IMG/VR virus record: IMGVR_UViG_3300037467_003067
Span: 32,001 to 96,000 of that record
Source of the DNA: a virus
Taxonomy: Duplodnaviria; Caudoviricetes
Length of the DNA stretch: 64,000 bases
Reading direction: 5' to 3' (one strand)
How positions within the stretch are numbered: the first letter of the stretch is position 1; each line of letters starts with the position of its first letter. Positions 10,216 to 49,193 of this stretch are shown here, piece after piece. The notes under the pieces are model-generated. The model was not told the DNA's origin. It was given only the letters and a program-made list of their open reading frames with translations, and made no database searches. The translations under genes and the position numbers were made by a program.

Positions 10216-11955
10216 ATGATTAGTTTTAAGGAATATAGGCTGAATGAGGCGGGCGGCGTTCCCTCCATGAAGCCAAGAAACGCGACATCTCAGGATGGTC
10301 TTGCGGCGCTGGAGGCTGAGGTTCTCGGCATCGTCGATACCTCGATCACCACGCTTCAGAAGTCTTTGAGGCAACGTGGTGGTGAGATGAATCCCTTCGA
10401 CGTGATGAGGCAAAATTTGCCTTGGTATCGCCGCTTGGGCAATTGGTGGAATCGTTTCTGGAACAACGACACTTCCAATGAATCACAGGAATATGGTCTT
10501 GAATTCCCGGATTTCATCCCTTTACACGAGCAGGAAGCCTTTCATGAACTTGAACTGATCATGGAAGGTCCCATCAATCATGCGATCGATCAAATGATGT
10601 ATCGCCTCCAAAGTCTCCGCGAGGAGCTTCACAAGGCAATCAAGCAGAGTTTCGCTACATACCGCCAGAGTCAGAGCCAACCGGGCGGCACTCAAGCGAC
10701 ATTACAACCGGCGACCACTTCAGACTTGCCTGCTAAATCCAATAAGGTAATGGATGCCAAGACCCAGACCTTCGATCCCGAAGACACAGATGATTCGGGC
10801 AGCACAAGCCCACTCCCCGACCCTGCGGATAGTGGTCCCGATGCTACAACGCCGGATGTTGGTTCTCCTCCGGAGACTCCCGAGTCGCCCGATGCGACTC
10901 CACCAGGGACTCCACCATCACGCCTGAGAGATGATATCCACATCGAAAATGTGGCAGCATTGACAGGTAGAGGGGACTATGGTTTGGCATCGAAGGTTGC
11001 GTTTGGTGGAAAAATCTATAAAGTCGCGAGTGCCAAATACAACAAGGCTGGAGAATTGGTCTCAGTTGAGGTCAAGGGAATCAAGGGCGAGATACCTGTT
11101 CCTGAGGAACTAGGCAAGAAGGTGGCGATTCGCTACGGCAGGCGAGAAGGCACGATCGAAGATATTCGGAAAAGCATCATCAACGGAGACCCTCCGATTT
11201 CTGATGAGCCATCGGGAACTTCGTCGGAACCAACGCCGACCCCAACCCCTCCAACACCACCGCCTGTTGACAGGAAACCCCCGGAAGAACCCCCGGTCGA
11301 CGATGAAATTGATACCAGTCCTATCGAAGACCCGGAAAGCGCCGAAGAAGGGGAGCATGACGTGTCTTGGTTGCCAGACAAGGACCAAAGGCTCTATGAC
11401 AAGGCGATGGCGGCGCGTGCCGAACGTGAAGCGATGGGCAAATTAACCCCTGCAGATCGATTCGAGCAATCGCTCAAGAATAATCCTGATTATTTGAATC
11501 CGACATTGCTGAAGATCATCGATTCGTCGCCAACGCCGGAATATCGACATTCCATTGTATCTTTCTTGGCTGGGATGTCGAAAGGGACTAGGATCTCGTT
11601 ATTCCCTCGTAATAATCACGGCTTCATGGATACCGATGTCGATCTGGGCAAGCTGGATTGGATTGCTGAGTTGAGTCCCGAGAAGGCTTACGAGGTCGGA
11701 GAAAAAATCGAAGACATGGACGAAGACAATCCGGGTTTCGACCTCAAGAAAGAGCTCGAACCTTACTTTGCCAATAAAGAAACATTCGATGCTTGGGTTA
11801 ACTCGCCAAACGAAAGTACGCATTCAAGAACTAAGATATTTGTGGAGAACTTGAAGAACAAACCTCCGAAGACCGACAAGGAAAATAAAGAGATACCGTT
11901 CGACAAACAAGTAACTCGTTATAAGAAAAAACTTAGGTCACGTGCTAAATCGTAA
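10216..11955 (+). CDS. putative internal head protein with capsid-targeting-like N-terminus and Pro/Asp-rich linkers
   Basis: N-terminus MISFKEYRLNEA; 579 aa. Confidence 0.65.
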   Translation: MISFKEYRLNEAGGVPSMKPRNATSQDGLAALEAEVLGIVDTSITTLQKSLRQRGGEMNPFDVMRQNLPWYRRLGNWWNRFWNNDTSNESQEYGLEFPDFIPLHEQEAFHELELIMEGPINHAIDQMMYRLQSLREELHKAIKQSFATYRQSQSQPGGTQATLQPATTSDLPAKSNKVMDAKTQTFDPEDTDDSGSTSPLPDPADSGPDATTPDVGSPPETPESPDATPPGTPPSRLRDDIHIENVAALTGRGDYGLASKVAFGGKIYKVASAKYNKAGELVSVEVKGIKGEIPVPEELGKKVAIRYGRREGTIEDIRKSIINGDPPISDEPSGTSSEPTPTPTPPTPPPVDRKPPEEPPVDDEIDTSPIEDPESAEEGEHDVSWLPDKDQRLYDKAMAARAEREAMGKLTPADRFEQSLKNNPDYLNPTLLKIIDSSPTPEYRHSIVSFLAGMSKGTRISLFPRNNHGFMDTDVDLGKLDWIAELSPEKAYEVGEKIEDMDEDNPGFDLKKELEPYFANKETFDAWVNSPNESTHSRTKIFVENLKNKPPKTDKENKEIPFDKQVTRYKKKLRSRAKS

Positions 11956-11957
11956 CT

Positions 11958-12001
11958 AAACAAAAGGCTTCTCAGGAATGATTCTGAGAAGCCTTTTGTT
12001 T
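11958..12001. terminator. bidirectional terminator
   Basis: AAAAGGCTTCTCAG...CTGAGAAGCCTTTT between convergent genes. Confidence 0.85.
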
Positions 12002-12006
12002 TGTAC

Positions 12007-12966
12007 TTACTGGCTCAGCAATTCGGTTGCAAGTTTGTCGAGTTCCTCGCCTGCACTACCCTCGATCAACGTGTAGTCGGCGACTTTGACTGGTTTAAGG
12101 TCGATGATGTATTTGTTTTTCACCTGGGAAAAGAAAGGAAGCAGCCAGGCAGCGGGGTAGACCTGTGCCGAGGTACCGCAGCAGATGAATACGCCGTTGC
12201 GATACTTGACTTCCTTGACCAATTTGGCTACTCGGTCGTAAGTTAGATCCACAGCTTCGCCGAACCAGACTACCTCGGGACGCAAGTGACGTTGACATTT
12301 GGGGCATCTCTCGCCTTCAACAACGGGCTTGTCAGTTTCGGTCTTGTAGTCGCAGGTGAAGATGGTGTCGCCATCGAGGTTGCTGATCTCATGATGTCGT
12401 TCGCATTTTTTGCGATTGATGAATCCATGGAGATGCCAGACGTCCTTGCATCCGGCGCGTTCCAAGAGGTCGTCGATGTTCTGCGTGATGTTGACCACGT
12501 TGAACTTCTCCTGGAGTCGGGCAATTGCCTTGTGAGCTAGATTCGGCTCAGCCGCCTTGATTGCCTCGAATCGCTGCGCGTAGAAATCCAGGACCAACGA
12601 ACGGTTCTTGATCCAGCCGTCCTGGCTTGCGACATCTTCCACGCGATGTTGCTCCCATAGAGAATCATTGCCTCTAAATGTGGGGATACCGCTTTCAGCC
12701 GAAAGCCCGGCACCGCTGAAGACCACGATGGTCCTCTTGTCAGCCGGTTCGGTCGGCAAGTTTTCTTGTTCCAGCACTTCATCAAACACTTGATTCTCCT
12801 TCTTTGATTCCAGAGTAGCTGCCGGTTCGGTCAAGCTCTGGTAGCCACAATGGGGGCAATGATAGGGATTGGACGGATCGCCGTCGCCGATGGTCCACCA
12901 ACCTCGACAGTTGCCGCATCCCAAATGTAACAAGTTTTCGATCGAGTAGCAATGCTTATTCTTCAT
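12007..12966 (-). CDS. cobB: Sir2/CobB NAD-dependent deacylase with an N-terminal Zn ribbon
   Basis: GAGLSAESGIPTFR, TQNIDDL, LHG, RPEVVWFGE and GTS motifs; class III YxxR (FYAQR). Confidence 0.9.
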   Translation of the reverse strand: MKNKHCYSIENLLHLGCGNCRGWWTIGDGDPSNPYHCPHCGYQSLTEPAATLESKKENQVFDEVLEQENLPTEPADKRTIVVFSGAGLSAESGIPTFRGNDSLWEQHRVEDVASQDGWIKNRSLVLDFYAQRFEAIKAAEPNLAHKAIARLQEKFNVVNITQNIDDLLERAGCKDVWHLHGFINRKKCERHHEISNLDGDTIFTCDYKTETDKPVVEGERCPKCQRHLRPEVVWFGEAVDLTYDRVAKLVKEVKYRNGVFICCGTSAQVYPAAWLLPFFSQVKNKYIIDLKPVKVADYTLIEGSAGEELDKLATELLSQ

Positions 12967-17425: not shown

Positions 17426-17429
17426 ACAT

Positions 17430-17437: not shown

Positions 17438-17442
17438 GGTTA

Positions 17443-17643
17443 ATGGAATCGTTTGCAAATTGGTTATTGAAACTCGAAATCGGGATGGTCCCGGAACCGG
17501 ACAAGCCCGAGCGACCCTGGCTAACGGCGTTGCCGACTGTGACGTTGGACGGCAGTGATTTGCCGCCGACGACCGCAAGCAACGCGCGTCAACGAAAGCT
17601 CATCCAACAGCGACGGATGCGGAAACGCATGAAGGATTCATGA
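17443..17643 (+). CDS. small basic protein with capsid-targeting-like N-terminus
   Basis: MESFANWLLKLE; Arg/Lys-rich C-tail. Confidence 0.55.
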   Translation: MESFANWLLKLEIGMVPEPDKPERPWLTALPTVTLDGSDLPPTTASNARQRKLIQQRRMRKRMKDS

Positions 17644-26048: not shown

Positions 26049-26411
26049 ATGAAAAACAATACAGGACAAACCAAGCAGTTATTGGAACAGGCACTCAGAG
26101 CCTTGCCGGACGACTTTGCCCTCCAGGGGGCAAGGTCATCCATCATTGCAGCCCTGAACCATATCAGCAGCATAGAACATAAACGACAGAGGCGAGAGAA
26201 CACGCAGAAGCACCTGGAAAAAATCCAGGCACAACAGCCGTTCAATATCGCGCCTTTATCTCCGACCCAAGCCAAGGCGGCAATCAACGGGCTGGAAAAA
26301 TTAATCCAACAAGAATTGGCGAACATTGACGCAAGGAAGTCCGAGAAGCCGAAACAGTCACAAACCAGGAGGAATTTTGGGAATAATGACCTTCAAACGT
26401 TTCATGGATAA
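26049..26411 (+). CDS. hypothetical protein
   Basis: Helical ORF directly after the terminase gene. Confidence 0.6.
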   Translation: MKNNTGQTKQLLEQALRALPDDFALQGARSSIIAALNHISSIEHKRQRRENTQKHLEKIQAQQPFNIAPLSPTQAKAAINGLEKLIQQELANIDARKSEKPKQSQTRRNFGNNDLQTFHG

Positions 26412-26970
26412 CTACATATGCGAAGTGAAACGAGCATACGACCATTCCTCAGTCATGGCGAATCTGCCGGATGATCTCGCTGCCTCCGTCATCGGCTGGG
26501 GACAGGAAAATATCCCCGAAAATGATCTCTACAAAGACCCGAACGAAGCCGGTCTCGGAAGAGAGAATGAGCCGCACGTGACCGTTCTCTACGGTATCCA
26601 TGAAACCAATGTCAGAAAAGTAAAAACCTTGATCGAGAACGAAAAACCCTTCGAAATCCGGCTAGGGAATATAGGAATATTTTCACATAATGAAATATTT
26701 GACGTTGTCAAAATCAACGTCACAAGCAAGCAATTGAATGACCTCAATAAAGTCCTCAAGGACGAACTGAGCCATAAGAACTTGTACCCGATCTATTCGC
26801 CCCACGTCACGATCGCGTACGTCAAGAAAGGACGAGCCAAATCGCTGGAAGATGACAGTTTTTTCGCAGGTAAAAAGTTCCCCGTCAAGCAAGTCGTTTT
26901 TAGCAGTAAAAACGGCAGCAAGTGTCTGCTGACCCTTAAAGGCTTAGGAGCGGATAGCCATAAGACCTAA
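26386..26970 (+). CDS. 2H phosphodiesterase (Acb1/gp57B/LigT-like)
   Basis: Two HxT motifs (PHVTVLYG, PHVTIAY); N-terminus MTFKRFMDNYICE. Confidence 0.85.
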   Translation: MTFKRFMDNYICEVKRAYDHSSVMANLPDDLAASVIGWGQENIPENDLYKDPNEAGLGRENEPHVTVLYGIHETNVRKVKTLIENEKPFEIRLGNIGIFSHNEIFDVVKINVTSKQLNDLNKVLKDELSHKNLYPIYSPHVTIAYVKKGRAKSLEDDSFFAGKKFPVKQVVFSSKNGSKCLLTLKGLGADSHKT

Positions 26971-32559: not shown

Positions 32560-33447
32560 ATGATCGAATTAAGCAATGGACATAAGTTCAGTTTTCAATG
32601 CGCATCAGGAGCCTTGGGCTTCGACGGACTCGGATACTTCTGGGAATATCCCCTAAGGTGGCTCGGTCTCATCGACCCAACCCAATTCACCGTCGTCGCC
32701 AAGACCGTCACGCTCAATCCCAGAGAAGGCAACCTCAGCATGTGGCACCCCTGGACCTGCGTCCGACTGCTCCCCGAAGGCACGGTCAACAGCGTCGGTC
32801 TCACCAACCCCGGTCTCGAAACCTGGATTGAAACCTATTACCCACGCGCCCAAAAGAAAGGCTACGACCTCGCCGCATCCGTCGAATCCGATAGCTGGGA
32901 AGACGCCTTCGTCATCGGCACCTTCCTCGCCGATTGCGACCTTAAATTCATCGAAGTCAACGTAAGTTGCCCGAACGTAGGTAAAATGACGCCTGCTGAT
33001 ATGGTCACAAAAGTTATCAAAGGATTAAAGGAATCTTGCCCCAAGCATCCCGTCATCCTCAAGATGTCCTTCCAGCAAACACAAGATGAACAACTCGTGA
33101 CCAAATTGGGGCAACTCGACGAGATCGAGGCAGTCCATGTTATCAACTCCGTGCCCTGGGAAGTCATCTTCCCCGACCAACCCTCGCCCCTGGAGAAGTA
33201 CAACCTCACAGGTGGTGTCAGCGGTACGTACATCCACAGCCTCGCCAGGACCGCTGTGAGGAACATCAAAAGACTGATCCCCAACAAGCCGGTCGTTGCG
33301 GGCGGCGGGATCTACTCCCTCCAAGAAATAAGCAATTTCAAATATGATGGGGCATCCGCATATTCCTTCGGAACGCTCTTCCTCAGGAAACCTTGGATGC
33401 CCAACCAAATCATCAAGCAGATCAAGAACTACGAGGCGTGGCTTTAA
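32560..33447 (+). CDS. pyrD: dihydroorotate dehydrogenase, class 1 catalytic subunit
   Basis: ASG, KTVT..PREGN, NSVGLTNPG, EVNVSCPN, GGVSG and GGGI. Confidence 0.9.
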   Translation: MIELSNGHKFSFQCASGALGFDGLGYFWEYPLRWLGLIDPTQFTVVAKTVTLNPREGNLSMWHPWTCVRLLPEGTVNSVGLTNPGLETWIETYYPRAQKKGYDLAASVESDSWEDAFVIGTFLADCDLKFIEVNVSCPNVGKMTPADMVTKVIKGLKESCPKHPVILKMSFQQTQDEQLVTKLGQLDEIEAVHVINSVPWEVIFPDQPSPLEKYNLTGGVSGTYIHSLARTAVRNIKRLIPNKPVVAGGGIYSLQEISNFKYDGASAYSFGTLFLRKPWMPNQIIKQIKNYEAWL

Positions 33448-33869
33448 ATCGTGCCGCCCGTGTCGCCCGCATTCGGAACAATCATGTTGTTCATCGACAG
33501 GTCGGGCGGGCGACCAGTTGGCACATTGCCAGGGACATTCCCCAAGCCCGGTCCCTGACCCGGTGGGCTATTACTCAGGTCGATAAGATGGGTCCACCGC
33601 GTGGACACCTTCTGACGGATCTCCTGCTTGACGCCGTTGGGAACCTGCGGATCAGACATCACGGCATTCACAATCGCATTGAGAATCTGCGAACCCGTAG
33701 GACCATTCAACGCGCTAGAAATCGACGCCGATAAGTCCTTGAATGCCATCTGAAGTCTGCTGGAATAGGGCGCAATCTGACCCGCACCATTCCCGATCGG
33801 CGCGGATACCCCACTATTATCATTCATATCTTCACGCAAACGAACATACTGACCGAATGTTTTTATCAA
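33444..33869 (-). CDS. hypothetical protein with capsid-targeting-like N-terminus
   Basis: TTG start after AGGAG; MIKTFGQYVRLRED. Confidence 0.65.
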   Translation of the reverse strand: MIKTFGQYVRLREDMNDNSGVSAPIGNGAGQIAPYSSRLQMAFKDLSASISSALNGPTGSQILNAIVNAVMSDPQVPNGVKQEIRQKVSTRWTHLIDLSNSPPGQGPGLGNVPGNVPTGRPPDLSMNNMIVPNAGDTGGTI

Positions 33870-34201: not shown

Positions 34202-36082
34202 ATGCGAAGAAATTTAATTAAGTGGGAAGCGTTTGAAAGAATCCAGAAGGATTCTTTGTCGGCGGCTGAGCACGAACTGTTCGAAGCATCGGAAGTCCTC
34301 GCTGAGGCTTTGGGCGTCGATCAACTTGGTCTCAACTGCTACAGCGATTCAAACGTTATCTACGAAACTCTGGACAATACCTATGTCCGAGCAGATTATG
34401 CCCTTTCCCATGACCACCTGACCTTCGAAAACATCGAAGAACTGGTCATCGACGAGGAAACCGCCGCAGAGGCAAGCAAGCAAAAGATCTCCGACCTGGT
34501 CGAGGCGATCCTGTCTAACGAGAGCCAAAAGGCTGACCAGATCCTTTCCGATTACATGTCCTCACCCGACGTTCGCAAGACCCTCATGGAAGGTCGTAAA
34601 GCCGGTTTCGTTCGCGACAAGAGCGAAGTCAAAGCCGCTGCCAAGACCAAGTCCAAGAACGCCGGAAAGTCCTTCATCAAGGCTCGCAAGCGATTGCTTG
34701 ATGCCGCTCCTGATGCCAACACCGGACCCCGCCTCAAGCGAGGAACCTTCGGTAGCATCAAGAATGACCCCAAAGGATATCAGAAGCGATACTGGAAGAC
34801 CCGTGGCAAGAAGCAAGGTCGTAACGTCATCAACGCTCAGGGCAAGGTCGAGAAAAAGAAGCACTGTATGAAGGAATTCTACAGCCTCGCCGAAAACGTC
34901 CTCGGCTTCGTTCACTACCACAACTTCGGTCCCCTTCTCCAAGAATCCGTCATCCATCGCGATCAGAAAGGTAACGTCGTCGCTGTCAAGATGCCGACCC
35001 TCAAGATCCGAAATGAGAACCGCATCCTGACCCTCAACCACAAGCACCAAATCGACAGCGATGTCAAAGTCGTGCGTGAAGAGGCTCACGGACTCGCGAC
35101 CGATGTCCGATTCTGCAAGGCTGTTGCCGAACTCAAGCGACACAACAACTTCTCGGATAATGAAGCCCTCAAGGAATGCCTCAACAACCTCGTTGGGCAG
35201 TTCCCCAGCGTGCTTTACCTCTCCCAGACCGAACTGTCGCACACCGTCGCCGAAGCCCTCGACACCGCTGGTGTCGCCAACTACGACGACCAGACCTGCG
35301 ACTTCATCGCCGAAGGTATCCTCCGCACCGCTTACGATGTCTTCGGAGATCGCGTCGAGCGAATCCTGCGATTCGCCCAAGCCGATGTCCAGACTGAAGG
35401 CGATGCCTACGTACACTTCCAAGATGTTGTTCATAAGTTCTTCCCAACACTTGACGAAAACTACACGTTACAGATGCAGGTCTTCACCGACCTCTTCAAC
35501 GCTGTCAACGAAGTGTGGGGACTCGCAACAGAGGCGGGCGACGCTGCTACCGTCAAGGACGCCGAGACCATCCTCGAAGAACTCTCCGCGATCGTCGATG
35601 GACAGGCTACCGCCGATATCAACCTCGCCGAAGAAGTCGCCGAATGGCTCGCTCAGTATGTCGAGAGCAACCTCGAAGGCGGCGAATGGCAGATCCCTGG
35701 ACCGCACGTCACCATCAATGGCGACCACCCGGCGATGAACGACAAGGCTCGCAAAAGCTACAGTCCCGCTCAGGACGCTGGAGCCGATGCCGAGGCTTGG
35801 CACAACCGAGCCACAGAAAAGCAGTTCACCGGTTCCATGTGGACCAACGTGGGCGGCGAAGGCATCTTCCCAAACCTCAACAATCCTTACATCCCTAAGC
35901 CGTTCGGTGACTACACCATGAAGGGCGAGAAGGGCGTCGATAAGGACAACGGCGGCGAAGGCACCTGGCAGGATAGCAACACCTGGCCAAACCTGACCAA
36001 TCCCAACGTTCCCAAGGCAGAAACGCCCAAGAGCTACAAGATGAAGAACGGTCCGGAAACCGACTTGGTTGTTGATAAGTAA
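34202..36082 (+). CDS. putative prohead core/inner protein (626 aa)
   Basis: First gene of the protease-scaffold-capsid operon; strong codon bias; many [LIV]xE sites; CTATATA at 34149. Confidence 0.55.
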   Translation: MRRNLIKWEAFERIQKDSLSAAEHELFEASEVLAEALGVDQLGLNCYSDSNVIYETLDNTYVRADYALSHDHLTFENIEELVIDEETAAEASKQKISDLVEAILSNESQKADQILSDYMSSPDVRKTLMEGRKAGFVRDKSEVKAAAKTKSKNAGKSFIKARKRLLDAAPDANTGPRLKRGTFGSIKNDPKGYQKRYWKTRGKKQGRNVINAQGKVEKKKHCMKEFYSLAENVLGFVHYHNFGPLLQESVIHRDQKGNVVAVKMPTLKIRNENRILTLNHKHQIDSDVKVVREEAHGLATDVRFCKAVAELKRHNNFSDNEALKECLNNLVGQFPSVLYLSQTELSHTVAEALDTAGVANYDDQTCDFIAEGILRTAYDVFGDRVERILRFAQADVQTEGDAYVHFQDVVHKFFPTLDENYTLQMQVFTDLFNAVNEVWGLATEAGDAATVKDAETILEELSAIVDGQATADINLAEEVAEWLAQYVESNLEGGEWQIPGPHVTINGDHPAMNDKARKSYSPAQDAGADAEAWHNRATEKQFTGSMWTNVGGEGIFPNLNNPYIPKPFGDYTMKGEKGVDKDNGGEGTWQDSNTWPNLTNPNVPKAETPKSYKMKNGPETDLVVDK

Positions 36083-36104: not shown

Positions 36105-36872
36105 GTGAACAATAAATGGAACAATGTTGATGTGAGCCTACAAGTGGCGAACAACATCGAACTCCTGCTCCCCCTAAACGAGAACTACCATGAGGGACAT
36201 CAATACCTCATGGTAGACTCGTGCCAAGGCGGCGGGTTTTTTCTCGACCTTCTGGAATCCACCAACGGTGGTCGTAGGACCAAATTCCGTGGCAAGTTCC
36301 AGGAAGCAGAAGCCGTAAACAAAAACAAGAGAATGTATCCATATAGCATTCTTGATGAGAATATCGGGCGACTCCAAGAGACCATCACCGCTGGTGGACT
36401 CGTCGGAGAACTCGACCACCCGACCGACTCCATCATCCACTTCGCTAACGCCTCCCACAAAATTACTAAGTTGTGGTGGGATGGCAATGTGCTGATGGGA
36501 GAAGGCGAAATTCTCGGCACGCCACATGGAATGATCCTCAAGGCTCTCATCGACGACGACGTTCGGGTCGGCATTAGTAGCCGAGGCGTCGGAAACGGTA
36601 AGGTCAACGAGGATGGTATCCTGGTTATCGGCGAATCCTATAAGCTGATTACCTTCGATGCCGTCGCTGACCCCAGCACCTTCCAGGCATTTCAGAAGGA
36701 AATCGTCGGAAACAAGCGAGAAAGCTATGTCCCACGAAATTCCGATAATAATACAAAAAATGTTCATAGCAGCATATATAACGTACGCAAAGAACAAGTT
36801 ATAGCTTGCTTGGGCGGCATTGTTAAAACACAAACCAATGAAATAAAGGCGAGGTTAAATAATAATGGATAA
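36105..36872 (+). CDS. gp21: prohead protease (T4 gp21-like)
   Basis: NKNKRMY, GELDHP, GISSRGVG and FDAVADPS. Start is GTG 36105 after GGAGG (the ORF track gives 36090). Confidence 0.95.
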   Translation: MNNKWNNVDVSLQVANNIELLLPLNENYHEGHQYLMVDSCQGGGFFLDLLESTNGGRRTKFRGKFQEAEAVNKNKRMYPYSILDENIGRLQETITAGGLVGELDHPTDSIIHFANASHKITKLWWDGNVLMGEGEILGTPHGMILKALIDDDVRVGISSRGVGNGKVNEDGILVIGESYKLITFDAVADPSTFQAFQKEIVGNKRESYVPRNSDNNTKNVHSSIYNVRKEQVIACLGGIVKTQTNEIKARLNNNG

Positions 36873-37779
36873 GGTTTTGGAAGCGTTGAAGCACTTGCTG
36901 CCGGAAGACAGCGTGAAGGAGATCTCCGAAGCGGTCTCAGGCATTCTTGAAGACGCCAAGAAAGAAATCGGAGATGAGTTCAACACCAAGCTAGAGGAAG
37001 CTTATGCTGATCTGGCTAAGGAGTTGGGCGATGCCGAGAAGACGGCTGAAGAAGGTTACACGGAAGCCTGGGGTATCATCCAGGATCTCCGCAACCGACT
37101 CGAAGCCCAGAAGGGCGAATTCGAAAAGGCTCTCGAAGATGGATATGCTGAAGCTTATGAGCTGATCCAGACCGAGAAGCAGAAGAATGAGAACCTGACC
37201 GCCGAGTTGTACGAAGAGTATGACCGTCGCCTCAAGGAAATGAAGGGATACATCGTCGAAAAGGTCGACGAATTCCTCAAGTTCCAGGGTGCCTCGATCT
37301 ACGAACAGGCTCGCCGCGATGTTCTCAATGACCCCCGCATGGCTGAACACAAGGTCACCCTCGACAAGATCGTCGACCTCGCCGTTAACTATGCCAGCGA
37401 CGAAGACTTCGCCTTCGCCAATAACAGCAAGCTCGAAGAAATGGCTCGCTCCGTCGACCAGTTGAAGTCTCAGGTTCGCCTTCTCGAAGGTCGTAACGTG
37501 AAGCTCTCAACCGAAAACACCAAGCTCAACGAACAGGTCCGCGCCGCCGCTGAAGTTATCACGGAAGCACGTGAACATAACTTGAAGATTGAGAGGAAAG
37601 AAAGAGTTAAGAATGGCAAGAACGCAAGTGGGAGAGGTAGCCTGATTGCCGAAGGTGTCATGCCCGAACCGCGTCACACCGCCAGCGAAGGCTCAAACGA
37701 TAGTGCGATCAATGAGAACACCAGCCCAGAACTTCATGAGATGCAAGTCCTTGCTGGGTTGAAGAAAGTTTCTTATTAA
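36865..37779 (+). CDS. gp22: prohead scaffold protein (T4 gp22-like)
   Basis: Acidic coiled coil with VEKVDEFL, located between the protease and capsid genes. Confidence 0.8.
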   Translation: MDKVLEALKHLLPEDSVKEISEAVSGILEDAKKEIGDEFNTKLEEAYADLAKELGDAEKTAEEGYTEAWGIIQDLRNRLEAQKGEFEKALEDGYAEAYELIQTEKQKNENLTAELYEEYDRRLKEMKGYIVEKVDEFLKFQGASIYEQARRDVLNDPRMAEHKVTLDKIVDLAVNYASDEDFAFANNSKLEEMARSVDQLKSQVRLLEGRNVKLSTENTKLNEQVRAAAEVITEAREHNLKIERKERVKNGKNASGRGSLIAEGVMPEPRHTASEGSNDSAINENTSPELHEMQVLAGLKKVSY

Positions 37780-37806: not shown

Positions 37807-39282
37807 ATGGATATTAATGCTAGATTTTTGAATGAAGCCCGCGAAATCGAAGCTCAGTGGAGCCGAACCGGTCTTCTCGACGGAATTAACGATCGCTTCG
37901 TTCGTTCAACCACTGCCGTTCTTCTTGAGAACCAGAGGCTCATCAACGAAGTAAGCACCGACACCAGCGATATCGCTCAGTTCAAGCGAATCTCGATTCC
38001 CTTGGTCCGACGTATCTACCCCCAGCTTATCGCTAACAAGATCGTATCTGTTCAGCCGTTGCTGGGTCCGACCGGGTTGGTCTACTACCTCCGCTTCCGT
38101 TACAGCAGCAACAAGGGCGCTACCCGTGGTGCTAGCAACAACGGCGGCTTCCCCGGTGACGATGTCAACACGCTGATGCAGCGTGCCTCCGGTGATGCCA
38201 ACCTCGACAATTGGTACACCCACCAGTTCGTTCCCAACGAGGTCACCTCGACCGATGCCGGTAGCGACACTGTGGCTGTCTACGCTCCCCTGGAGCACAC
38301 CCCGATCCTCGGCGGAACCATGACGGGTACGGTTTATGTCGGCACCACCGCCGTCCAGACCTTCGTCGTCCTCGAAAATGGTAACTTCGTCTTCACCGCG
38401 ATCGGCTCGCCGACCACCTACGTCAACGTCAGCGGTGCCGCCAGCGGTACGATCACGGCTGGCTCGGGTGCCTCGCTGAACCTCACCACTGGTGAATTGT
38501 CGTTGACATTCAACAGCGCTCCTAGTTCCAATTATGTCGTAGTTAATTATGAATATAATATGGAATGTAATCAAGATCTCCCGGAGATCAACCTCGTGAT
38601 CGAGTCCGAGGAAATCGCCGCTAAGACCCGTAAGCTGAAGGCTGTTTGGAGCTACGAGGCTCAGCAGGATCTCCGATCCCAGCACAACCTCGACGCCGAA
38701 GCCGAACTGACCGCCGTCTTGGCTCAGGAAATCAACCTCGAAATCGATCGTGAGATTCTCACAGACTTGCGCAATAATGCCGGAACCGTGGCAGCATGGG
38801 ATTTTAATACCGCGCTAGGCGATACCATCAAAGAAAAATATGAAAGCTTGTACGTAAAAGTAGTTGAGCTTTCCGCCGTCGTTCACCGTAAGACCCTCCG
38901 TGGTGGCTGCAACTGGCTCGTTACGTCTCCTGAAGTCGCCTCGATGTTCGAGACCGCGACCGCTGGATTCGCCCCGACCCCCAGCGAAACCTTCACGACC
39001 TCCCTCGGTGTCCAGTACGTCGGAACTATCAACAGCCGATGGCGCTTGTATAAGGACCCCCTCTTCCCGCAGGGTCAAATCCTCGCCGGGTACAAGGGTG
39101 ATAGTTACATGGATTCTGGTTATTTCTATTGTCCATATGTTCCTATGACTCAGACCCCGGTCGTCCTTGATCCCGAAAGCTTTTGCCCACGTAAAGGTAT
39201 CTTAACTCGGTACGGGAAGAAGTTGCTTCGCGAGGGAGCAAAGTTCTACGCGAGACTGAGTATTGCTAACTTCATCATCTAA
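37807..39282 (+). CDS. gp23: major capsid protein (T4 gp23-like)
   Basis: LLENQ, PLVRR, VQPLLGPTGL, KTRKLKA, EINLEIDRE, YCPYVP and KGILTRYG. Confidence 0.97.
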   Translation: MDINARFLNEAREIEAQWSRTGLLDGINDRFVRSTTAVLLENQRLINEVSTDTSDIAQFKRISIPLVRRIYPQLIANKIVSVQPLLGPTGLVYYLRFRYSSNKGATRGASNNGGFPGDDVNTLMQRASGDANLDNWYTHQFVPNEVTSTDAGSDTVAVYAPLEHTPILGGTMTGTVYVGTTAVQTFVVLENGNFVFTAIGSPTTYVNVSGAASGTITAGSGASLNLTTGELSLTFNSAPSSNYVVVNYEYNMECNQDLPEINLVIESEEIAAKTRKLKAVWSYEAQQDLRSQHNLDAEAELTAVLAQEINLEIDREILTDLRNNAGTVAAWDFNTALGDTIKEKYESLYVKVVELSAVVHRKTLRGGCNWLVTSPEVASMFETATAGFAPTPSETFTTSLGVQYVGTINSRWRLYKDPLFPQGQILAGYKGDSYMDSGYFYCPYVPMTQTPVVLDPESFCPRKGILTRYGKKLLREGAKFYARLSIANFII

Positions 39283-43377: not shown

Positions 43378-44250
43378 ATGATTAGAGATAAGAAGAAGGG
43401 ATGCATGTACGGGCTTGCCATCGGCGATGCTCTCGGTGCGGCTGTTGAGTTTCGTGATCCGGGTACATTCCCGCCTGTGACAGGTTATCGAGGGAGTGGA
43501 CCGCACGGCATCGAGGCTGGTGCCTGGACTGACGACACGAGCATGGCACTTGCCTTAGCCGATAGTCTTGCTCATGATGGGAGCGCAAAAGACCAACTTG
43601 AGCGATACGTAGCATGGCATCAAGAAGGTAAATATTCGGTGAATGGTTGGTGTTTCGACATTGGCTGTACGACCAAGACGGCGTTGGAAGATTTTGTGCA
43701 GAAGGGGAATCTTCAGGGACCGTCGGAGGAGTGGGATAGTGGCAACGGGTCGATCATGCGTCTTGCACCGCTTGTGATTAAGTTTCATGGTTGTAGCGAT
43801 TTGTATGATAAGGCGGTAGAATCCAGTGTCGTGACACATGGAAGTCGATTGTGTAAATCAGCATGTGATTTTCTAGCTGAATTTCTTGAAGTTTTGATGG
43901 ATTCTTCGCCCGAGGACGATCGCGAAGATATGTTAGAATATGGAAATTATGAACCTGAGATCAACAAGGTGATTCGTTGGGGTTGGCGAGACAACCAGGA
44001 CATTCGGGGGACGGGGTTTGTTGTACAGAGTTTGGAAGCGGCGTTGTGGGCGTTCATGACATCGAACAGTTTTGAGGAAACGGTCTTGAAGGCTGTGAAC
44101 TTAGGAGAGGACTCGGATACGACTGGTGCGGTTGCGGGGCAGATGGCGGGTGCTTATTGGGGGTTTGATGCGATCCCGCAGTCTTTGGTTGATGGTTTGG
44201 CACGCAAGGATATGATTGATCTGTATTTGAACCCGATACTATTGAGTTAA
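43378..44250 (+). CDS. ADP-ribosylglycohydrolase (DraG/ARH family)
   Basis: GDALG, WTDDT, GNGSIMR and DSDTTGA. Confidence 0.95.
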   Translation: MIRDKKKGCMYGLAIGDALGAAVEFRDPGTFPPVTGYRGSGPHGIEAGAWTDDTSMALALADSLAHDGSAKDQLERYVAWHQEGKYSVNGWCFDIGCTTKTALEDFVQKGNLQGPSEEWDSGNGSIMRLAPLVIKFHGCSDLYDKAVESSVVTHGSRLCKSACDFLAEFLEVLMDSSPEDDREDMLEYGNYEPEINKVIRWGWRDNQDIRGTGFVVQSLEAALWAFMTSNSFEETVLKAVNLGEDSDTTGAVAGQMAGAYWGFDAIPQSLVDGLARKDMIDLYLNPILLS

Positions 44251-44714
44251 AGTAGCTTGATGATTTTTGCTGCTGGAGTTCTGTATTCGATGACCGGAAT
44301 TGGAGGTAGCTGATACGTACGTGTCAGTCTACTGGTCTTGTACGGAACCCCTGCCCAATAATTCTTGGCAGCTTCTTCTAGCACTAGTGGATTGGGATCA
44401 TCGTTGTGTCTGATTCGCAAGTCGATCTCGGTGTACCAGCCTTGATCTGAGCTTTCGACTTTCCCTTGTGGTTCGACCACGTAGATATAGTCTTGGTAGC
44501 CGCCCAACTTGCCGATGTCTTTGGTCTCTTTTGCCATGTAGATAGATTGAGCTCGCGGGAGCATGTTAGCCGGTCGGTATTTTTCGAGTATCACCTCGAC
44601 CGGATGTCCTTTGGTGTAACGGGCGGCGTTTGGTACCAGGATAGTGCCTTCGGGCAATTTCTTTGTCGATCCGTGATAGAAAAGGCTCTCCCACTGTTTA
44701 AATGAACTAACCAT
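44247..44714 (-). CDS. Arr-like ADP-ribosyltransferase domain protein with capsid-targeting-like N-terminus
   Basis: FYHGS..L..GT.L, SIYM and YIYVVEPQG; starts MVSSFKQWE. Confidence 0.65.
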   Translation of the reverse strand: MVSSFKQWESLFYHGSTKKLPEGTILVPNAARYTKGHPVEVILEKYRPANMLPRAQSIYMAKETKDIGKLGGYQDYIYVVEPQGKVESSDQGWYTEIDLRIRHNDDPNPLVLEEAAKNYWAGVPYKTSRLTRTYQLPPIPVIEYRTPAAKIIKLL

Positions 44715-45471: not shown

Positions 45472-45520
45472 GGCGAATGAAGTTGAAGGGAGATGTGATT
45501 TAGTTATTCTATATACCTTT

Positions 45521-46018
45521 ATGGTATTGTCTTTTATGGAATGGCTACAATTGCGTGAAAGTCGCGAGTGGCAACCTGGTCTTGGGACGAAGGACGAGAT
45601 TTATCGTCGGATCACGACGACGGGGATACCGGCTCGTCGCGGGACCAGAGCTAATCAGTTTAGCAAGTCGTATGCCACCGATCCTGGTGATTTTGGTCGA
45701 GGGATATACTACTCGACCAACTTCTACCGAGCCAAGCAGCATGGTGATGTCACTAAATCGGTTCTGAGGCTTAGGAATCCGATTGTGTTGACGGATGAGG
45801 AGGCGTATCGTTTCGCGGCTCAATTCCATACGGTCAAGTTGTCGGATGAGGATTACGAGAGCATAAGAGATCCTCGCTTGCGTGTCGAGAAGATGGTGGC
45901 GAATGCGATGGAGTTGACCAGGTATTTCATTGGGCTTGGTCACGATGGGTTGGTTTGTATCCACAAGCGGGGCGAATTGGAGATGGTTGATTTTTCGCCT
46001 TATCTTCATGCTAAATAG
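45521..46018 (+). CDS. ADP-ribosyltransferase-like protein with capsid-targeting-like N-terminus
   Basis: RRGT, FGRGIYYS, LRNP and GHDGLV; starts MVLSFMEWLQLRES. Confidence 0.6.
   Translation: MVLSFMEWLQLRESREWQPGLGTKDEIYRRITTTGIPARRGTRANQFSKSYATDPGDFGRGIYYSTNFYRAKQHGDVTKSVLRLRNPIVLTDEEAYRFAAQFHTVKLSDEDYESIRDPRLRVEKMVANAMELTRYFIGLGHDGLVCIHKRGELEMVDFSPYLHAK
46011..46017 (+). promoter_or_regulatory. late-promoter-like box CTAAATA, 4 nt before ATG
   Basis: CTAAATA-GGGT-ATG. Confidence 0.6.
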
Positions 46019-46021
46019 GGT

Positions 46022-46315
46022 ATGAAAACATTTACCGAATGGTTGGATTTGCGAGAAATGAATGACCCTGACCAACCGACTTTAGCGTATGATAAGATGT
46101 GGAATGCGGCATTTTGTCCTGAGTGCGCCCGCATGGCGTTAGCGGGGGAGATGCCACCTGAATTGGCAGACGATCCTTATGTGGTCAAGCCTGGAGAAGT
46201 GGTTCCTATCTCTCTTAATCAGTTGAGGGATCTTTGGGCGAATGAGCAGATGCCGCGATGTATGTGGTGTGATCGTCCATTGTGGAAGCCTATGCCGCGT
46301 CCGAGTGTTAATTGA
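46022..46315 (+). CDS. small Zn-finger protein with capsid-targeting-like N-terminus
   Basis: MKTFTEWLDLRE; CPEC..CMWC. Confidence 0.7.
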   Translation: MKTFTEWLDLREMNDPDQPTLAYDKMWNAAFCPECARMALAGEMPPELADDPYVVKPGEVVPISLNQLRDLWANEQMPRCMWCDRPLWKPMPRPSVN

Positions 46316-46870
46316 TTATTGGTTGGTCATAATTGATTTTAGAGCAGCTTCATAAGCGGCTTGCCATTGTGGTGGTAGCTCGTATTCGAGCGCCGCTTGT
46401 GGTGAGCCGCTTTCGACGATTGTATCGAGGATAATTTTGACGAGTTGGTGTAGTCGCTCTGTGTTGATGTTTGGGATAACGGCTTTGATTGCCTGCGTCA
46501 TCTTTGGGACATTGTAGAGGTTTTCTAGGTCTACGATGCGGTAGATCGGGGCTTGTCTGATACGGAGCATCCTGAGGGCTTCGAGCCGGTGTTGTCCTTC
46601 GACGACGTTGTTTTGGTCATCGACGATGAGTCGTTCGATGTATCCTTTGGGCGACTTGATCGCGGCGGCGAGGTCTTGGACTCGTTTTAGTTCTCTTGGG
46701 TCTCCGAGTCTGACACCACCTCGGAGTTGGCTTGTGGGTACGGTCTCGTTACCTTTTGCCATTCCGTAGTAGTAGCTGGCATCGATGATGTTTTGAACAT
46801 CGCATTGCGGTCGGATGACTCTGATGCTTTCGGTGAGCAGTTGATTTTCCAGCCATAGTTTGAATTGCAT
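46316..46870 (-). CDS. ParB/Srx-like domain protein with capsid-targeting-like N-terminus
   Basis: LIVD..VVEGQHRLEAL; starts MQFKLWLENQLLTES. Confidence 0.7.
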   Translation of the reverse strand: MQFKLWLENQLLTESIRVIRPQCDVQNIIDASYYYGMAKGNETVPTSQLRGGVRLGDPRELKRVQDLAAAIKSPKGYIERLIVDDQNNVVEGQHRLEALRMLRIRQAPIYRIVDLENLYNVPKMTQAIKAVIPNINTERLHQLVKIILDTIVESGSPQAALEYELPPQWQAAYEAALKSIMTNQ

Positions 46871-46883: not shown

Positions 46884-48017
46884 TTACTCTTCACTGAAGT
46901 CTCGAAGCGGAATGAAGTTGACGCCGATGCTTGCTAGGTAGCCTCGGTTAGCTTGAACGAGGACCGTTTTGAAAGTGTCTTTCTGGGGATAGGACAGTTT
47001 TAGCTCGCCTTGTTGGTCCATTTGTTGTACTCGTTTTACATCGTCATCGGAGACCACGGTATAGCCATCGGTGTAGTACGTTTGCCCGTTGATAGTGAAT
47101 TGGAAGTATTCATCCATGGAGTATTCGGAAGTTTTCAGCGGCTCGATGGATTGGGCTTTGTTTCTTAAGGCGTATTTGAGTCCGAGCAATTTGGATTTGG
47201 ATTTATTGGTATCGAATCTTGCGCCGAGGAAGTTAGCTAGGTCGATAACGTAGTCATGATATTGCGGCTTGACTGCGGTGCTGCCTGCGCATTCGTCGCC
47301 ACTGATTCGTTTTTCATTTGGCGAATAGGTTACCATGACGTGCGGCTTGTTATTGGGTCCGAAGAGCGTGAGGATGGTACGGTCCTTGTCATGGCTCATG
47401 AGACCGACGCTGCCACAATTCGACATTTGCCTGGAGAGGAGCGCCGATCTCTCTCCGGTGTCGATCCACTTGAAGCCGTTGGGATAGACCTTGATGGGCG
47501 TAGTTTGGTCGAAGTGACGACGGCGGTCGTATTTGACGGCGGCGTCTTGGAAGTTCAGTTTCTTATACGGGGCGATGTCGGTGAGTTTACCGCTGGTGAT
47601 ATCCTGGATCAGTCCATAGTAGGTGAAGAACACATAGTCGAAGAATTTCTCATGAATCATCTTGACCAAACGTTGGCGTTGGTTATTGAGGAATTCTTGG
47701 TCGATTTCGTCATTTGGGAGTCGGTATTCCATTCTCTCGGCGGCTTGGCGGAATGTCTCTGGGTCTGTAGTGGCTTCGTAGAGATAGGTTAGTTCATAGA
47801 GCGACAGGTACTCTCTGGGGTTCCAGGTTATAATCCGCCACCAGTCTGGGTTTTCGGCTTGGGTTCCGATGGCTCGGTATTGCTTGTACCATTTGGCGAT
47901 GAGGGGCGCGAGCTTGCCGTATTTCTCGTAGAGAATCTTGGAGATGATCTCGGGGAATCCCATCCTGACTATGGTTTGTTTGGATTCTGTTAGGAGGAAC
48001 CAATTGGAAAATCGCAT
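46884..48017 (-). CDS. PcfJ-like domain protein with capsid-targeting-like N-terminus
   Basis: MSNCG..L...NKPHVMV..I..G...KPQY; starts MRFSNWFLLTES. Confidence 0.5.
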   Translation of the reverse strand: MRFSNWFLLTESKQTIVRMGFPEIISKILYEKYGKLAPLIAKWYKQYRAIGTQAENPDWWRIITWNPREYLSLYELTYLYEATTDPETFRQAAERMEYRLPNDEIDQEFLNNQRQRLVKMIHEKFFDYVFFTYYGLIQDITSGKLTDIAPYKKLNFQDAAVKYDRRRHFDQTTPIKVYPNGFKWIDTGERSALLSRQMSNCGSVGLMSHDKDRTILTLFGPNNKPHVMVTYSPNEKRISGDECAGSTAVKPQYHDYVIDLANFLGARFDTNKSKSKLLGLKYALRNKAQSIEPLKTSEYSMDEYFQFTINGQTYYTDGYTVVSDDDVKRVQQMDQQGELKLSYPQKDTFKTVLVQANRGYLASIGVNFIPLRDFSEE

Positions 48018-48039: not shown

Positions 48040-48768
48040 TCAAAGTTTGAAATAGGTGTGGATTGTTTCGCTTAACCTTTTTGGGTCAGGATTTTCCAGA
48101 CCAATTCCCATGCAGGGGATAGCGATTTCGTGATTTTGAAATACAGCGTGAAAGAAATTTGGTCGATAGATGGCGATATTCCTAACGCCGAGAATATTAC
48201 TGAGGTGGAGCATGGAGCTATCGATGCAGACAATGCCGGATGATCCTAGTAGAAATCTGGCGGCGTTGATCCAATTGAGTCGGATTTGAGGAACATCGAG
48301 ATAGGATGGGTCGTTGGGACCTCCTATTTGTGCTACTTTTCGATTTCCGAAGTCAATATTTTTCCAATGTTGGTATCTTTTAAATTCGTATATTGTATGG
48401 GGGTGGCAAAGGATGGCATTGTGCTTGGGGATGGTGCCGAGTCGGTTGATGGCTTGAATAGAGAGTGTATATCGGGAGGGGACATTTAATATGCGGGCAC
48501 ACTTATCCACATAACTTTCAGTCCAAGCAGAATGGCTGTTTTGTCCATGTATATTACAAGTGAAATCATTGATTTTGTAAGATTGAAATCCAATTTTTTC
48601 GACATTAGGCAGCAAGGTTTGGATGAGGATTCCAAATGAGCCATCATTAAGCCACCAGGACAGTTGTAACTGGATCGGCTCTGCGAATCTTTCGATCAGG
48701 GGCAGCCAAGCGATTGCATCTCCATAACTACCTCGCAAGACAAGTTGTTTCATGATGTGGGTTTCCAT
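48040..48768 (-). CDS. glycosyltransferase family 9-like protein
   Basis: GSYGD, QIGG and IDSSMLHLS; AT-rich. Confidence 0.6.
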   Translation of the reverse strand: METHIMKQLVLRGSYGDAIAWLPLIERFAEPIQLQLSWWLNDGSFGILIQTLLPNVEKIGFQSYKINDFTCNIHGQNSHSAWTESYVDKCARILNVPSRYTLSIQAINRLGTIPKHNAILCHPHTIYEFKRYQHWKNIDFGNRKVAQIGGPNDPSYLDVPQIRLNWINAARFLLGSSGIVCIDSSMLHLSNILGVRNIAIYRPNFFHAVFQNHEIAIPCMGIGLENPDPKRLSETIHTYFKL

Positions 48769-48810
48769 TCGGAAAATTACATAGAGTATTTAATTCTATA
48801 TAGTTGAAAT

Positions 48811-48817
48811 CTAAATA
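48811..48817 (+). promoter_or_regulatory. late-promoter-like box CTAAATA, 4 nt before ATG
   Basis: CTAAATA-GGAT-ATG. Confidence 0.6.
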
Positions 48818-48821
48818 GGAT

Positions 48822-49193
48822 ATGGATTTCAGGATGTGGCTGGTTGAGAGCGAAGGCGTGATCCATGTTCCGTTGTCTAAATTGGTCTTGACCAAGAGCG
48901 AGTTACAGGCGGCGGTAGAGAACATCACGCGGGGTTATCCGGCGATGACGGAAGGACCTGTTTTGGTCGTGGATATGGGGCGTGGTTTGTATCAGTTGGT
49001 GAATGGATATCACCGGCTGATACCGATGATGTTGTCTGGTGCTGACAGTGTACTGGCTTTGGTTGATGTGTCGGCTGGAAAGCGACCGTGGGGGCTTCCG
49101 ACACGGTCCGATCGGTTTCGCTATGATCCGTCTTTGCCTTACAAGGGTTTGGAGACGTTCTTGGAGCCATATATGTTGCGACGGCTTGGTTAA
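48822..49193 (+). CDS. ParB/Srx-like domain protein with capsid-targeting-like N-terminus
   Basis: PVLVV..YQLVNGYHR; starts MDFRMWLVESE. Confidence 0.65.
   Translation: MDFRMWLVESEGVIHVPLSKLVLTKSELQAAVENITRGYPAMTEGPVLVVDMGRGLYQLVNGYHRLIPMMLSGADSVLALVDVSAGKRPWGLPTRSDRFRYDPSLPYKGLETFLEPYMLRRLG

Follow-up and report, generated by a model that had tools for sequence, protein, structure and literature searches.

Tagged genes and head module

The window, i.e., the whole stretch of 64,000 nucleotides analysed, corresponds to bases 32001-96000 of a contig of 298,603 bp from an uncultured giant soil phage. According to CheckV, this contig represents about 59% of the genome. Eleven N-termini sharing a short peptide (hereafter called tag) had led to the original prediction of "about 11 effectors", and all of them are found in the window, as follows.

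10216..11955, + strand: 579 aa, MISFKEYRLNE; TAAATA box shortly upstream of the ATG
17443..17643, + strand: small ORF, 66 aa, MESFANWLLKLE; PSSM score 11.0 at the first ATG; TATATA box 6 nt upstream
26386..26970, + strand: 2H phosphoesterase (LigT-like, weakly Acb1-like), 194 aa, MTFKRFMDNYICE
31481..32497, + strand: ADP-ribosyltransferase (ART)-like, 338 aa, MNFSDWLQVEE; immediately 3' of the portal gene
33444..33869, - strand: 141 aa, (M)IKTFGQYVRLRE; TTG start instead of ATG
44247..44714, - strand: 155 aa, MVSSFKQWE; TAAATA box upstream; FYHGS
45521..46018, + strand: 165 aa, MVLSFMEWLQLRE, the tag with the highest score; TATATA box 5 nt upstream of the ATG
46022..46315, + strand: 97 aa, MKTFTEWLDLRE; predicted Zn finger; TAAATA box 4 nt upstream of the ATG
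46316..46870, - strand: 184 aa, MQFKLWLENQLLTE; weakly ParB_N-like
46884..48017, - strand: 377 aa, MRFSNWFLLTE/SKQ...; member of a large conserved family of huge phages
48822..49193, + strand: 123 aa, MDFRMWLVE; ParB N-terminal-like; TAAATA box 4 nt upstream of the ATG

The predicted 2H phosphodiesterase is the 26386 protein (Pfam 2_5_RNA_ligase2, E=2.3e-10; Acb1, E=1.7e-4; PHROG 755), whose gene is operon-internal with a Shine-Dalgarno sequence AGGAGG upstream. Three ART-like proteins had been announced. One of them, 31481, is retained on a match to ART-PolyVal below the Pfam cutoff (E=3.4e-6) and on its homologues, many of which carry PF18760 (among the best 120 of 321), while 44247 is a weak lead only (Pfam Arr-ms, E=0.0067). 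Two proteins had been described as ParB/Srx-like; a ParB_N-like look is seen for 46316 and 48822: 46316 by PHROG ParB-like matches (E from 1e-5 to 1e-3), 48822 by Atlas (feature score of 0.97 to ParB clusters, TM of 0.51-0.59 to ParB_N models). The PcfJ-like assignment of 46884 is not maintained, since this protein has no match in Pfam or PHROG and its confident AF2 model has no fold match in the PDB. The 10216 protein has no match in Pfam, PHROG or Atlas. The 17443 ORF overlaps a longer minus-strand ORF, thus this gene call is uncertain. The orthologue of the 33444..33869 gene in LR756511.1, the closest relative, reads ...MKRFLDYYRFRE.

A T4-type terminase large subunit (TerL) belongs to the machinery as well, and the window encodes the following head genes.

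27602..31459, + strand: T4-type portal (gp20) with intein/HNH inserts; Pfam Portal_T4 E=3e-66, Intein_splicing E=1.5e-23
34202..36082, + strand: 626-aa protein at the gp67/gp68 position, 20 [LIV]-x-E sites; syntenic orthologue in LR756511.1
36090..36872, + strand: gp21-family prohead serine protease (Peptidase_S77); Pfam S77 E=1.8e-24
36865..37779, + strand: acidic 304-aa protein with 18 [LIV]-x-E sites, candidate for a gp22-like scaffold; TAAATA box 3 nt upstream of the ATG
37807..39282, + strand: gp23-type major capsid protein (MCP), tag-like N-terminus MDINARFLNE; Gp23 domain from residue 56 on (Pfam, E=4.5e-83)

In the announced gp21/gp22/gp23 module, gp21 and gp23 (and also gp20) are recognized by Pfam. 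The 36865 protein has no Pfam match, thus its gp22-like identity is deduced from composition and from its position between protease and MCP; it is the presumed receptor of the tag. The protease, aligned with PDB 5JBL (E=2e-14), keeps the His of DHP and the Ser of SSRG; it looks intact and is the presumed tag-removing enzyme. The 34202 protein, also without Pfam match, is a candidate processed core protein, a role suggested by its position. The maturation site of the MCP is likely LINE-49, just ahead of the Gp23 domain.

Extent of the tag set

The motif M-x(1-3)-F-x-x-[WYF] is found at the start of 36 of the 384 crude gene calls of the whole contig, i.e., roughly 9% (about one gene in ten). Shuffling of residues 2-15 gives 7.2±2.5 expected matches (maximum 16 in 2000 shuffles), and the motif follows only 14 of 1644 internal Met (0.85%). 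The enrichment is thus 5- to 11-fold over controls, and the N-terminal excess expected by the original prediction is indeed seen. It leads to a set of roughly 30-45 tagged genes in the contig; the predicted set is real and its size of about 11 was too low. It must be noted that some of the 36, about 4, are clearly chance matches or doubtful ORFs: 54561(-), 83254(-), 179149 and 182766 (the last three in window numbering); 83254(-) carries a tRNA_bind domain.

When the other 10 columns are scored with a leave-one-out PSSM, tagged N-termini score higher than F-x-x-aromatic sites located internally (Mann-Whitney p=2e-13): 20 of 32 lie above the 95th percentile of the control and about 12 score poorly. 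In a six-frame PSSM scan of every start codon, nearly all top matches fall on one of the first three starts of a real gene. All-vs-all BLASTP among the 36 tagged proteins gives a single paralogous pair. These proteins reach 675 aa, most of them belong to no known family, and their genes are scattered over the contig. An AdoMet decarboxylase and a P-loop kinase are also included; both could equally act in the cytoplasm, which speaks against a capsid location.

The tag and the end of the leader

The consensus of the tag is M-x(1-2)-F-x-x-W/F/Y-L-x(0-3)-E (8-14 residues). The second aromatic position is Trp in 20 of the 36, and Leu comes next in 15. The invariant Phe is encoded by TTT and TTC 18 times each, and five different codons are in use in the Leu column. 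Since synonymous codons vary freely, the tag is selected at the peptide level.

The tag was described as usually ending in [LIV]-x-E. This ending is enriched at residues 8-16, though its strict form concerns just 15/36 tagged proteins (42%) vs. 39/348 untagged ones (11-13% in controls). With any hydrophobic residue at P3, the values become 28/36 (78%) vs. 54/348 (16-20% in controls). Many tags have Trp or Phe at P3 (W-L-E), and some are devoid of an obvious cleavage site. The end of the leader, hydrophobic-x-Glu, resembles a cleavage element of the gp21 type.

Two cargo families give the position of this end. For the 377-aa protein (46884), 124 homologues are found at E<=0.001, of which the best 120 were considered and 108 could be anchored. 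Among these best 120, [LIVMF]-x-E directly precedes the conserved core (ESKQ...GYPEII) in 89 of the 108 anchored sequences, and the leaders are of several types and 4-28 aa long (mode 10). The closest homologues listed, 14 in number, have another leader (TRLALRVIAAKQD) with Ala or Ser in place of Glu. The AF2 model of the 377-aa protein has a pLDDT of 91 overall and of 47 for the tag (residues 1-7 below 50), i.e., in this model the tag lies outside the folded domain. In the ART family (31481), homologues carry different leaders or none (best 120 of 321), and tagged forms end where leaderless homologues begin, e.g., ...LLCE/EVKKISLQ vs. MSVKKISKQ. Judged from these alignments, the boundary between leader and mature protein is conserved in both families.

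Dialects

At loci where a family member has an aromatic leader, 9 neighbours have an aromatic tag and none an aliphatic one (MIKLKxLLxE); where it has an aliphatic leader, 12 neighbours are aliphatic and none is aromatic. The N-terminus of the MCP resembles the tag dialect of the same phage. Over 55 loci, phages whose MCP begins with [FY]LNE have 51 aromatic tags and 1 aliphatic tag, vs. 1 and 14 for the IKSLL phages (Fisher p=2e-12). Dialects are genome-specific and track the capsid-protein clade; this association corresponds to about two or three independent lineages, thus co-evolution is not proven. The pairs are F-x-x-W-L..E tags with MCP ..ARFLNE, and MIKLKSLLxE tags with MCP ..IKSLLTE.

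The enrichment is the same in LR756511.1 (62/1108 vs. 18.5±4 expected). Only 6 of the 36 tagged proteins have a reciprocal best hit in this genome, vs. 125 of the 348 untagged ones. Tagged cargo is poorly conserved in the closest relative, i.e., its turnover is fast.

Promoter box

With a strict definition, 25 genes have a TAAATA/TATATA box whose end is 4-8 nt upstream of the ATG, vs. 0.16 expected per distance bin; among these genes, 22 have no Shine-Dalgarno sequence and 12 are tagged. With a broader definition, 14 of the 36 tagged genes have a box (odds ratio 9.4, p=3e-7 for the tag-box association). Several of the 22 tagged genes without box have ordinary Shine-Dalgarno sites. The box presumably corresponds to the core of T4 late promoters, which it resembles. 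No homologue of T4 gp55 was found in the contig (about 59% of the genome), thus the late-promoter reading is drawn from sequence resemblance. Tagged genes, and the scaffold candidate gene as well, are linked to this late-promoter-like box.

Origin and role of the tag

The capsid-targeting sequence (CTS) of T4 reads MKTYQEFIAE (10.1101/2021.01.19.427310); its residues 4 and 7 are needed for targeting, and its residues 8 and 10 for processing (PMC9026906). According to the reviews that relate Mullaney & Black 1996 (PMC9026906, PMC5694885), the CTS of IPI, IPII and IPIII and the propeptide of Alt are removed by the gp21 prohead protease. T4 internal proteins are poorly conserved (PMC9026906). The tag places at corresponding positions a Phe, an aromatic residue three positions later, Leu/Ile next and a following Glu. 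T4 ipI (NC_000866), which starts with MKTFKEF, has a score beyond the 99th percentile for N-termini without tag. In both cases a leader of roughly 10 residues precedes otherwise unrelated proteins, the head module is of the gp20/gp21/gp23 type, the cargo is poorly conserved between relatives, and an ART-like protein is concerned (Alt in T4). A portable, T4 CTS-like tag on unrelated genes, as proposed originally, is thus backed by the enrichment, the BLASTP and PSSM results and the ipI match; further independent computational lines (head module, hydrophobic-x-Glu end, conserved leader boundary, dialects, late-promoter-like box) point the same way.

The differences with T4 are that: (i) about 30-45 genes are tagged in a partial genome of 299 kb, vs. 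a handful; (ii) Glu often lies 1-4 residues farther away from the two aromatic residues, and Trp is common at P3; (iii) the genes are dispersed, many being leaderless behind a TAAATA box; (iv) lineage dialects exist (aromatic, aliphatic MIKLKxLLxE and others); (v) the present system is known from computational analysis.

The shared N-terminal peptide is probably a CTS of the T4 internal-protein type, within a targeting and processing system much larger than that of T4. Tagged proteins would be made late, many of them from TAAATA/TATATA-box promoters giving leaderless or nearly leaderless mRNAs. The two aromatic residues would dock the cargo onto the scaffolding core (the gp22-like protein, possibly the 34202 protein) during prohead assembly, and the gp21-family protease would cut after Glu with a hydrophobic residue two positions earlier. 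Mature cargo would stay free in the head and exit with the DNA at infection. It would consist of fast-turnover, mostly unknown proteins together with ART-like, ParB_N-like, 2H-phosphoesterase and P-loop kinase enzymes; such a make-up and such a turnover suggest a role in early host takeover or counter-defence. In the searchable literature, neither a virion proteome of this uncultured phage nor a paper on such tag sets in huge phages was found. A share of about 9% of genes far exceeds the CTS cargo of any characterised phage, which speaks against this reading.

Alternatively, the tag could be a sorting or docking label for another late structure or partner (chaperone, assembly hub, actin-like filament system, tail/baseplate compartment). 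A portable, genome-specific tag outside the fold fits any address-label system, and both the unusually high number of tagged genes for capsid cargo and the metabolic-type enzymes agree with it. We consider this unlikely: the tag agrees at each position with the T4 CTS, which was dissected by experiment (PMC9026906), it ends in hydrophobic-x-Glu as gp21 sites typically do, and its dialect resembles and tracks the MCP N-terminus; moreover, the scaffold gene has the same promoter type, and no alternative receptor is known.

Far less probable is that the conserved N-terminus is the by-product of a nucleotide signal (ribosome binding or initial transcribed sequence) located where leaderless late mRNAs begin. 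The broadly defined box lies within a few nt of the ATG in 14 of 36 tagged genes, and the first codons could matter for initiation in the 22 strict-box genes without Shine-Dalgarno sequence. Against this, the conserved Phe and Leu vary freely in codon, the Met-to-Phe spacing varies by whole codons, 22 tagged genes have no box, and in other phages members of the same protein families have an unrelated aliphatic dialect at this position.

Chance, or remnant ancestry of an N-terminal helix without shared function, is hardly tenable: four to seven matches are expected, at least 4 of the 36 seem spurious, and about 12 are weak in the leave-one-out scoring, but the enrichment, the restriction to true starts, the absence of relationship beyond the tag and its recurrence both in the relative genome and at dozens of related loci effectively refute it for a core set of about 20-30 genes.

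Capsid targeting could also be generalized, a step for which we see even chances: in huge phages with T4-type heads, about 10% of genes would encode capsid-loaded, fast-evolving cargo, many as leaderless late mRNAs, with a lineage-specific address peptide imitating the N-terminus of their own MCP. Since the tag closely resembles the T4 head-loading tag, the packaged, probably injected proteome of uncultivated phages might then be readable directly from sequence.

Comparison with other systems

At the hypervariable IP loci of T-even phages, CTS-like leaders are found on alternative internal proteins (Repoila et al. 1994, as cited in PMC9026906). As far as this citation goes, new unrelated proteins gain the same leader there too, giving a plastic packaged repertoire, but they are few small basic proteins of one locus in close T4 relatives, whereas enzymes and large proteins of a distant huge phage are concerned here.

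In phiKZ-like giants (SPN3US, phiKZ, 201phi2-1), ejection or inner-body proteins have long N-terminal propeptides (PMC5694885, PMC10052503). Likewise, giant heads package dozens of proteins, and these propeptides are thought to be targeting elements cut by a gp21-related protease after x-E. However, most of them have 80-130 residues, cleavage occurs at S/A/G-x-E, and no consensus tag that is both short and shared has been described for them; besides, the head module of the present phage is of the T4 gp23 type rather than of the phiKZ type.

Polyvalent proteins of phages and conjugative elements contain domains predicted to be delivered with DNA (Iyer et al. 2017, PMC5512222). Membership of the tagged proteins in this group (2-15 fused conflict-related domains) is rejected, each tagged gene having at most one kind of Pfam domain. 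The domain types overlap (ART-PolyVal, ParB_N-like, phosphoesterases); they are strung in one giant polypeptide in polyvalent proteins, whereas each has here a separate gene and its own tag, as had been proposed.

Number of tagged genes

All eleven N-termini quoted in the original prediction are found at their genes; the gene at 33869(-) has TTG as start codon, and 17443 is a 66-aa ORF that overlaps a longer antisense ORF yet owns a promoter-like box. The source record is a single 298,603-bp virus contig (window: its bases 32001-96000) of ~59% completeness (CheckV), thus per-genome counts refer to a fragment. This 298.6-kb record carries the IMG/VR label «provirus».

A crude greedy call over the whole contig gave 384 genes, 36 of which start with the tag, i.e., M-x(1-3)-F-x-x-[WYF], vs. 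7.2±2.5 in shuffles (residues 2-15 permuted, 2000 shuffles, maximum reached 16) and 14 of 1644 internal Met. The enrichment predicted over shuffled and internal controls is thus observed, and the set proposed (about 11 genes) is too small: 30-45 tagged genes are estimated in this partial genome. The enrichment is repeated in LR756511.1 (62/1108 vs. 18.5±4), a 595-kb uncultured phage which is the nearest public relative (74.6% identity for the major capsid protein, MCP).

When the columns are aligned on Phe, Trp is found at +3 in 20/36, Leu at +4 in 15/36 and Glu at +8 in 15/36. With a leave-one-out PSSM deprived of the two defining columns, tagged N-termini score higher than internal F-x-x-aromatic sites (p=2e-13); 20 of 32 tagged N-termini exceed the 95th percentile of the control (leave-one-out PSSM). 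In a six-frame scan of every ATG, GTG and TTG, nearly all top hits coincide with one of the first three start codons of a real gene. Of the 36 calls, about 4 are spurious and a dozen or so weak. The tRNA_bind protein (83254 in window numbering) was rejected as a chance case, the motif match belonging to the domain itself. A handful of additional candidates came up, 17443, 134038 and 245748 among them, others having longer N-termini. Relaxed motifs (i.e., [YW] first, aliphatic first, or F at residues 6-10) have weak or no enrichment; a few of them, e.g., MSIELNFKEWLLME and MRGLHFQRWLENQE, resemble genuine tags in which the N-terminus is longer.

Head module and likeness to T4

A T4-type head module is present in the window:

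24246-26042, TerL
27602-31459, gp20 portal, intein-bearing (1285 aa; Pfam Intein_splicing in two stretches, plus HNH_3)
36090-36872, protease (Peptidase_S77)
37807-39282, gp23 capsid protein (MCP; Gp23 domain)

The length of the portal (1285 aa) is due to intein-splicing and HNH endonuclease inserts. The S77 protease matches T4 gp21 (PDB 5JBL, E=2e-14), His (DHP) and Ser (SSRG) being both kept in the alignment. An acidic protein of 304 aa (36865), encoded between the protease and MCP genes, contains 18 [LIV]-x-E sites and the upstream 626-aa protein (34202) contains 20; from their position, they are scaffold and core candidates, respectively. A dihydroorotate dehydrogenase-family gene (32560-33447; Pfam DHO_dh, E=3e-25) is located between the portal/ART and head-core genes, an odd location for a metabolic enzyme. 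The 370-aa protein just 3' of MCP (40007-41119) has a weak match, below cutoff, to a TnsA-like endonuclease N-terminal domain (E=1e-4).

The T4 capsid-targeting sequence (CTS) is MKTYQEFIAE (10.1101/2021.01.19.427310); by amber suppression, targeting was assigned to residues 4 and 7, and processing to residues 8 and 10 (PMC9026906). In the tag, Phe occupies residue 3-5 and an aromatic residue lies three positions further; Leu or Ile comes next, and Glu 1-4 residues on. T4 ipI (NC_000866) starts with MKTFKEF and fits the regular expression; its score exceeds the 99th percentile of the untagged N-termini, whereas that of ipIII exceeds the 95th and that of ipII falls just short of the 95th. T4 gene 57B (L050:10953-11411(-)), starting with MMEFKDF, fits as well, which may be a coincidence.

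Of the tagged N-termini, 42% have [LIV]-x-E with its end at residues 8-16, vs. 11-13% of controls; when any hydrophobic residue is allowed at P3, the values are 78% vs. 16-20%. In MCP, LINE-49 is shortly ahead of the Gp23 domain, consistent with T4-like protease specificity.

Leaders in homologous families

The tagged 377-aa protein (46884-48017(-)) has 124 homologues at E<=0.001, all metagenomic, the best 120 being listed (P0001-P0120). The core of the family opens with a near-invariant ESKQ..NLGYPEII, preceded by leaders of several types (4-28 residues, mode 10). Among the best 120 of the 124 homologues, [LIVMF]-x-E abuts the core in 89 of the 108 anchored sequences. The 14 closest listed homologues have another leader, TRLALRVIAAKQD, with Ala or Ser replacing Glu. 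This family, with the invariant motifs NCGS..GVM and YSP.E.R, is widespread in huge phages. Its assignment as PcfJ-like is not retained: there is no Pfam or PHROG match, and the confident AF2 model (pLDDT 91, residues 1-7 <50) has no fold match in PDB (Foldseek, E<=0.001).

The ART family of 31481-32497(+) has 321 homologues. Among the 120 listed, leaders are aromatic (F-x-x-aromatic type, 38), aliphatic (MIKLKxLLxE type, at least 14), of other types or absent. Leaders of the tagged forms stop where the leaderless forms start.

Leader type and capsid protein

In the IMG/VR loci of homologues, neighbours of aromatic-leader members comprise 9 aromatic-tagged and 0 aliphatic-tagged genes; neighbours of aliphatic-leader members comprise 12 aliphatic and 0 aromatic. 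Up to 8 of 20 genes have the aliphatic tag in one locus (L040). From these sequences, leader type (hereafter dialect) is a property of the genome.

The regions around 80 MCP homologues were then compared. In phages whose MCP N-terminus is of the ..[FY]LNE type, 493 distinct genes include 51 with aromatic and 1 with aliphatic tags, vs. 1 and 14 among 281 genes for the ..IKSLL type (p=2e-12 for MCP type vs. dialect). The MCP N-terminus mirrors the local tag in both clades: MDINARFLNE vs. ..F[LI]LNE (aromatic), MSDIKSLLTE vs. MIKLKSLLxE (aliphatic). MCP N-termini resembling the local dialect (first ~10 residues) are:

37807-37840, window
19574-19606(-), locus L040
loci L109-L142

This tracking is suggestive of co-evolution, not a proof of it, since only 2-3 independent lineages were sampled. 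F7, L8 and E10 of MCP occupy T4 CTS positions 7, 8 and 10.

Significance of the tag

The simplest account and, judging from sequence, a probable one is a T4-style system of capsid targeting and processing on a much larger scale: (i) tagged proteins would be made late; (ii) the aromatic pair would dock them onto the scaffolding core; (iii) the gp21-type protease would trim them after Glu; (iv) the trimmed proteins would travel inside the head. Counting against capsid targeting are the many tags with non-canonical P3, the subgroup of close 377-aa homologues with Ala/Ser for Glu and the very high number of tagged genes; moreover, some tagged enzymes might act in the cytoplasm. The main rival, i.e., that the tag addresses another late structure or partner, is considered unlikely beside the cleavage-type endings and the MCP likeness.

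A translational or nucleotide signal is largely excluded and very improbable. The conserved Phe is encoded by TTT (18) and TTC (18), the conserved Leu by five codons; since synonymous codons vary at both, selection acts on the peptide and a nucleotide-level signal was rejected.

A TAAATA/TATATA box ends 4-8 nt 5' of ATG in 25 genes genome-wide (expected 0.16 per distance bin), 22 of them without Shine-Dalgarno and 12 tagged. Under a slightly broader definition, the box precedes 14 tagged vs. 22 untagged genes (odds ratio 9.4, p=3e-7). The same arrangement occurs at the scaffold candidate (36865), in LR756511.1 and in IMG/VR relatives. Box regions in the window are, e.g.:

10202-10215
17429-17442
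36853-36864
45507-45520
46010-46021
48810-48821

The core of T4 late promoters is TATAAATA. The box resembles it, which suggests T4-late-type promoters giving leaderless mRNAs. The search of the contig for T4 gp55 gave no match, which carries no information since gp55 is divergent and the contig incomplete.

Chance resemblance is the least probable explanation and is largely excluded by the enrichment. Paralogy of the tagged proteins is ruled out, a single pair being related.

Both the CTS concept and the CTS-like leaders that alternative internal proteins carry in T-even phages are prior knowledge (PMC9026906). Propeptides of phiKZ-like giant phages are long (PMC5694885), whereas the present tags are short and CTS-like. 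In the freely accessible literature searched, no report was found of dozens of short CTS-like tags or of tag dialects in huge T4-head phages. Since most giant phages are uncultured, little is known of their head contents and of the proteins they inject before gene expression. Should the tag prove to be a genuine signal for capsid targeting, the packaged proteome could be listed from sequence alone. For this phage, the list would comprise ART-like, ParB_N-like, 2H-phosphoesterase/Acb1-like and kinase enzymes plus many unknowns, i.e., prime candidates for immediate-early counter-defence. Lineage dialects and the MCP likeness would give a handle on cargo/scaffold/shell recognition, and the tags could serve for loading foreign proteins into non-T4 capsids. 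The T4 CTS is already in use for such loading.

Tagged proteins

The putative cargo turns over fast: 30 of 36 tagged genes are without BLASTP match in LR756511.1, and reciprocal best hits are found for 6/36 tagged vs. 125/348 untagged genes. Most tagged proteins have no Pfam/PHROG family; for the 579-aa protein of 10216-11955(+), no functional lead was obtained in Pfam, PHROG or Atlas. Some recognised domains begin right after the tag (AdoMet_dc at residue 23, P-loop kinase at about residue 11-19); 2H phosphoesterase and ART-PolyVal domains begin further into their proteins. The tag is immediately ahead of the domain in an AdoMet decarboxylase-family protein (whole contig, 106232-106651) and in a zeta-toxin/AAA_18-like P-loop kinase (233837-234385), which would be unusual virion enzymes, if packaged.
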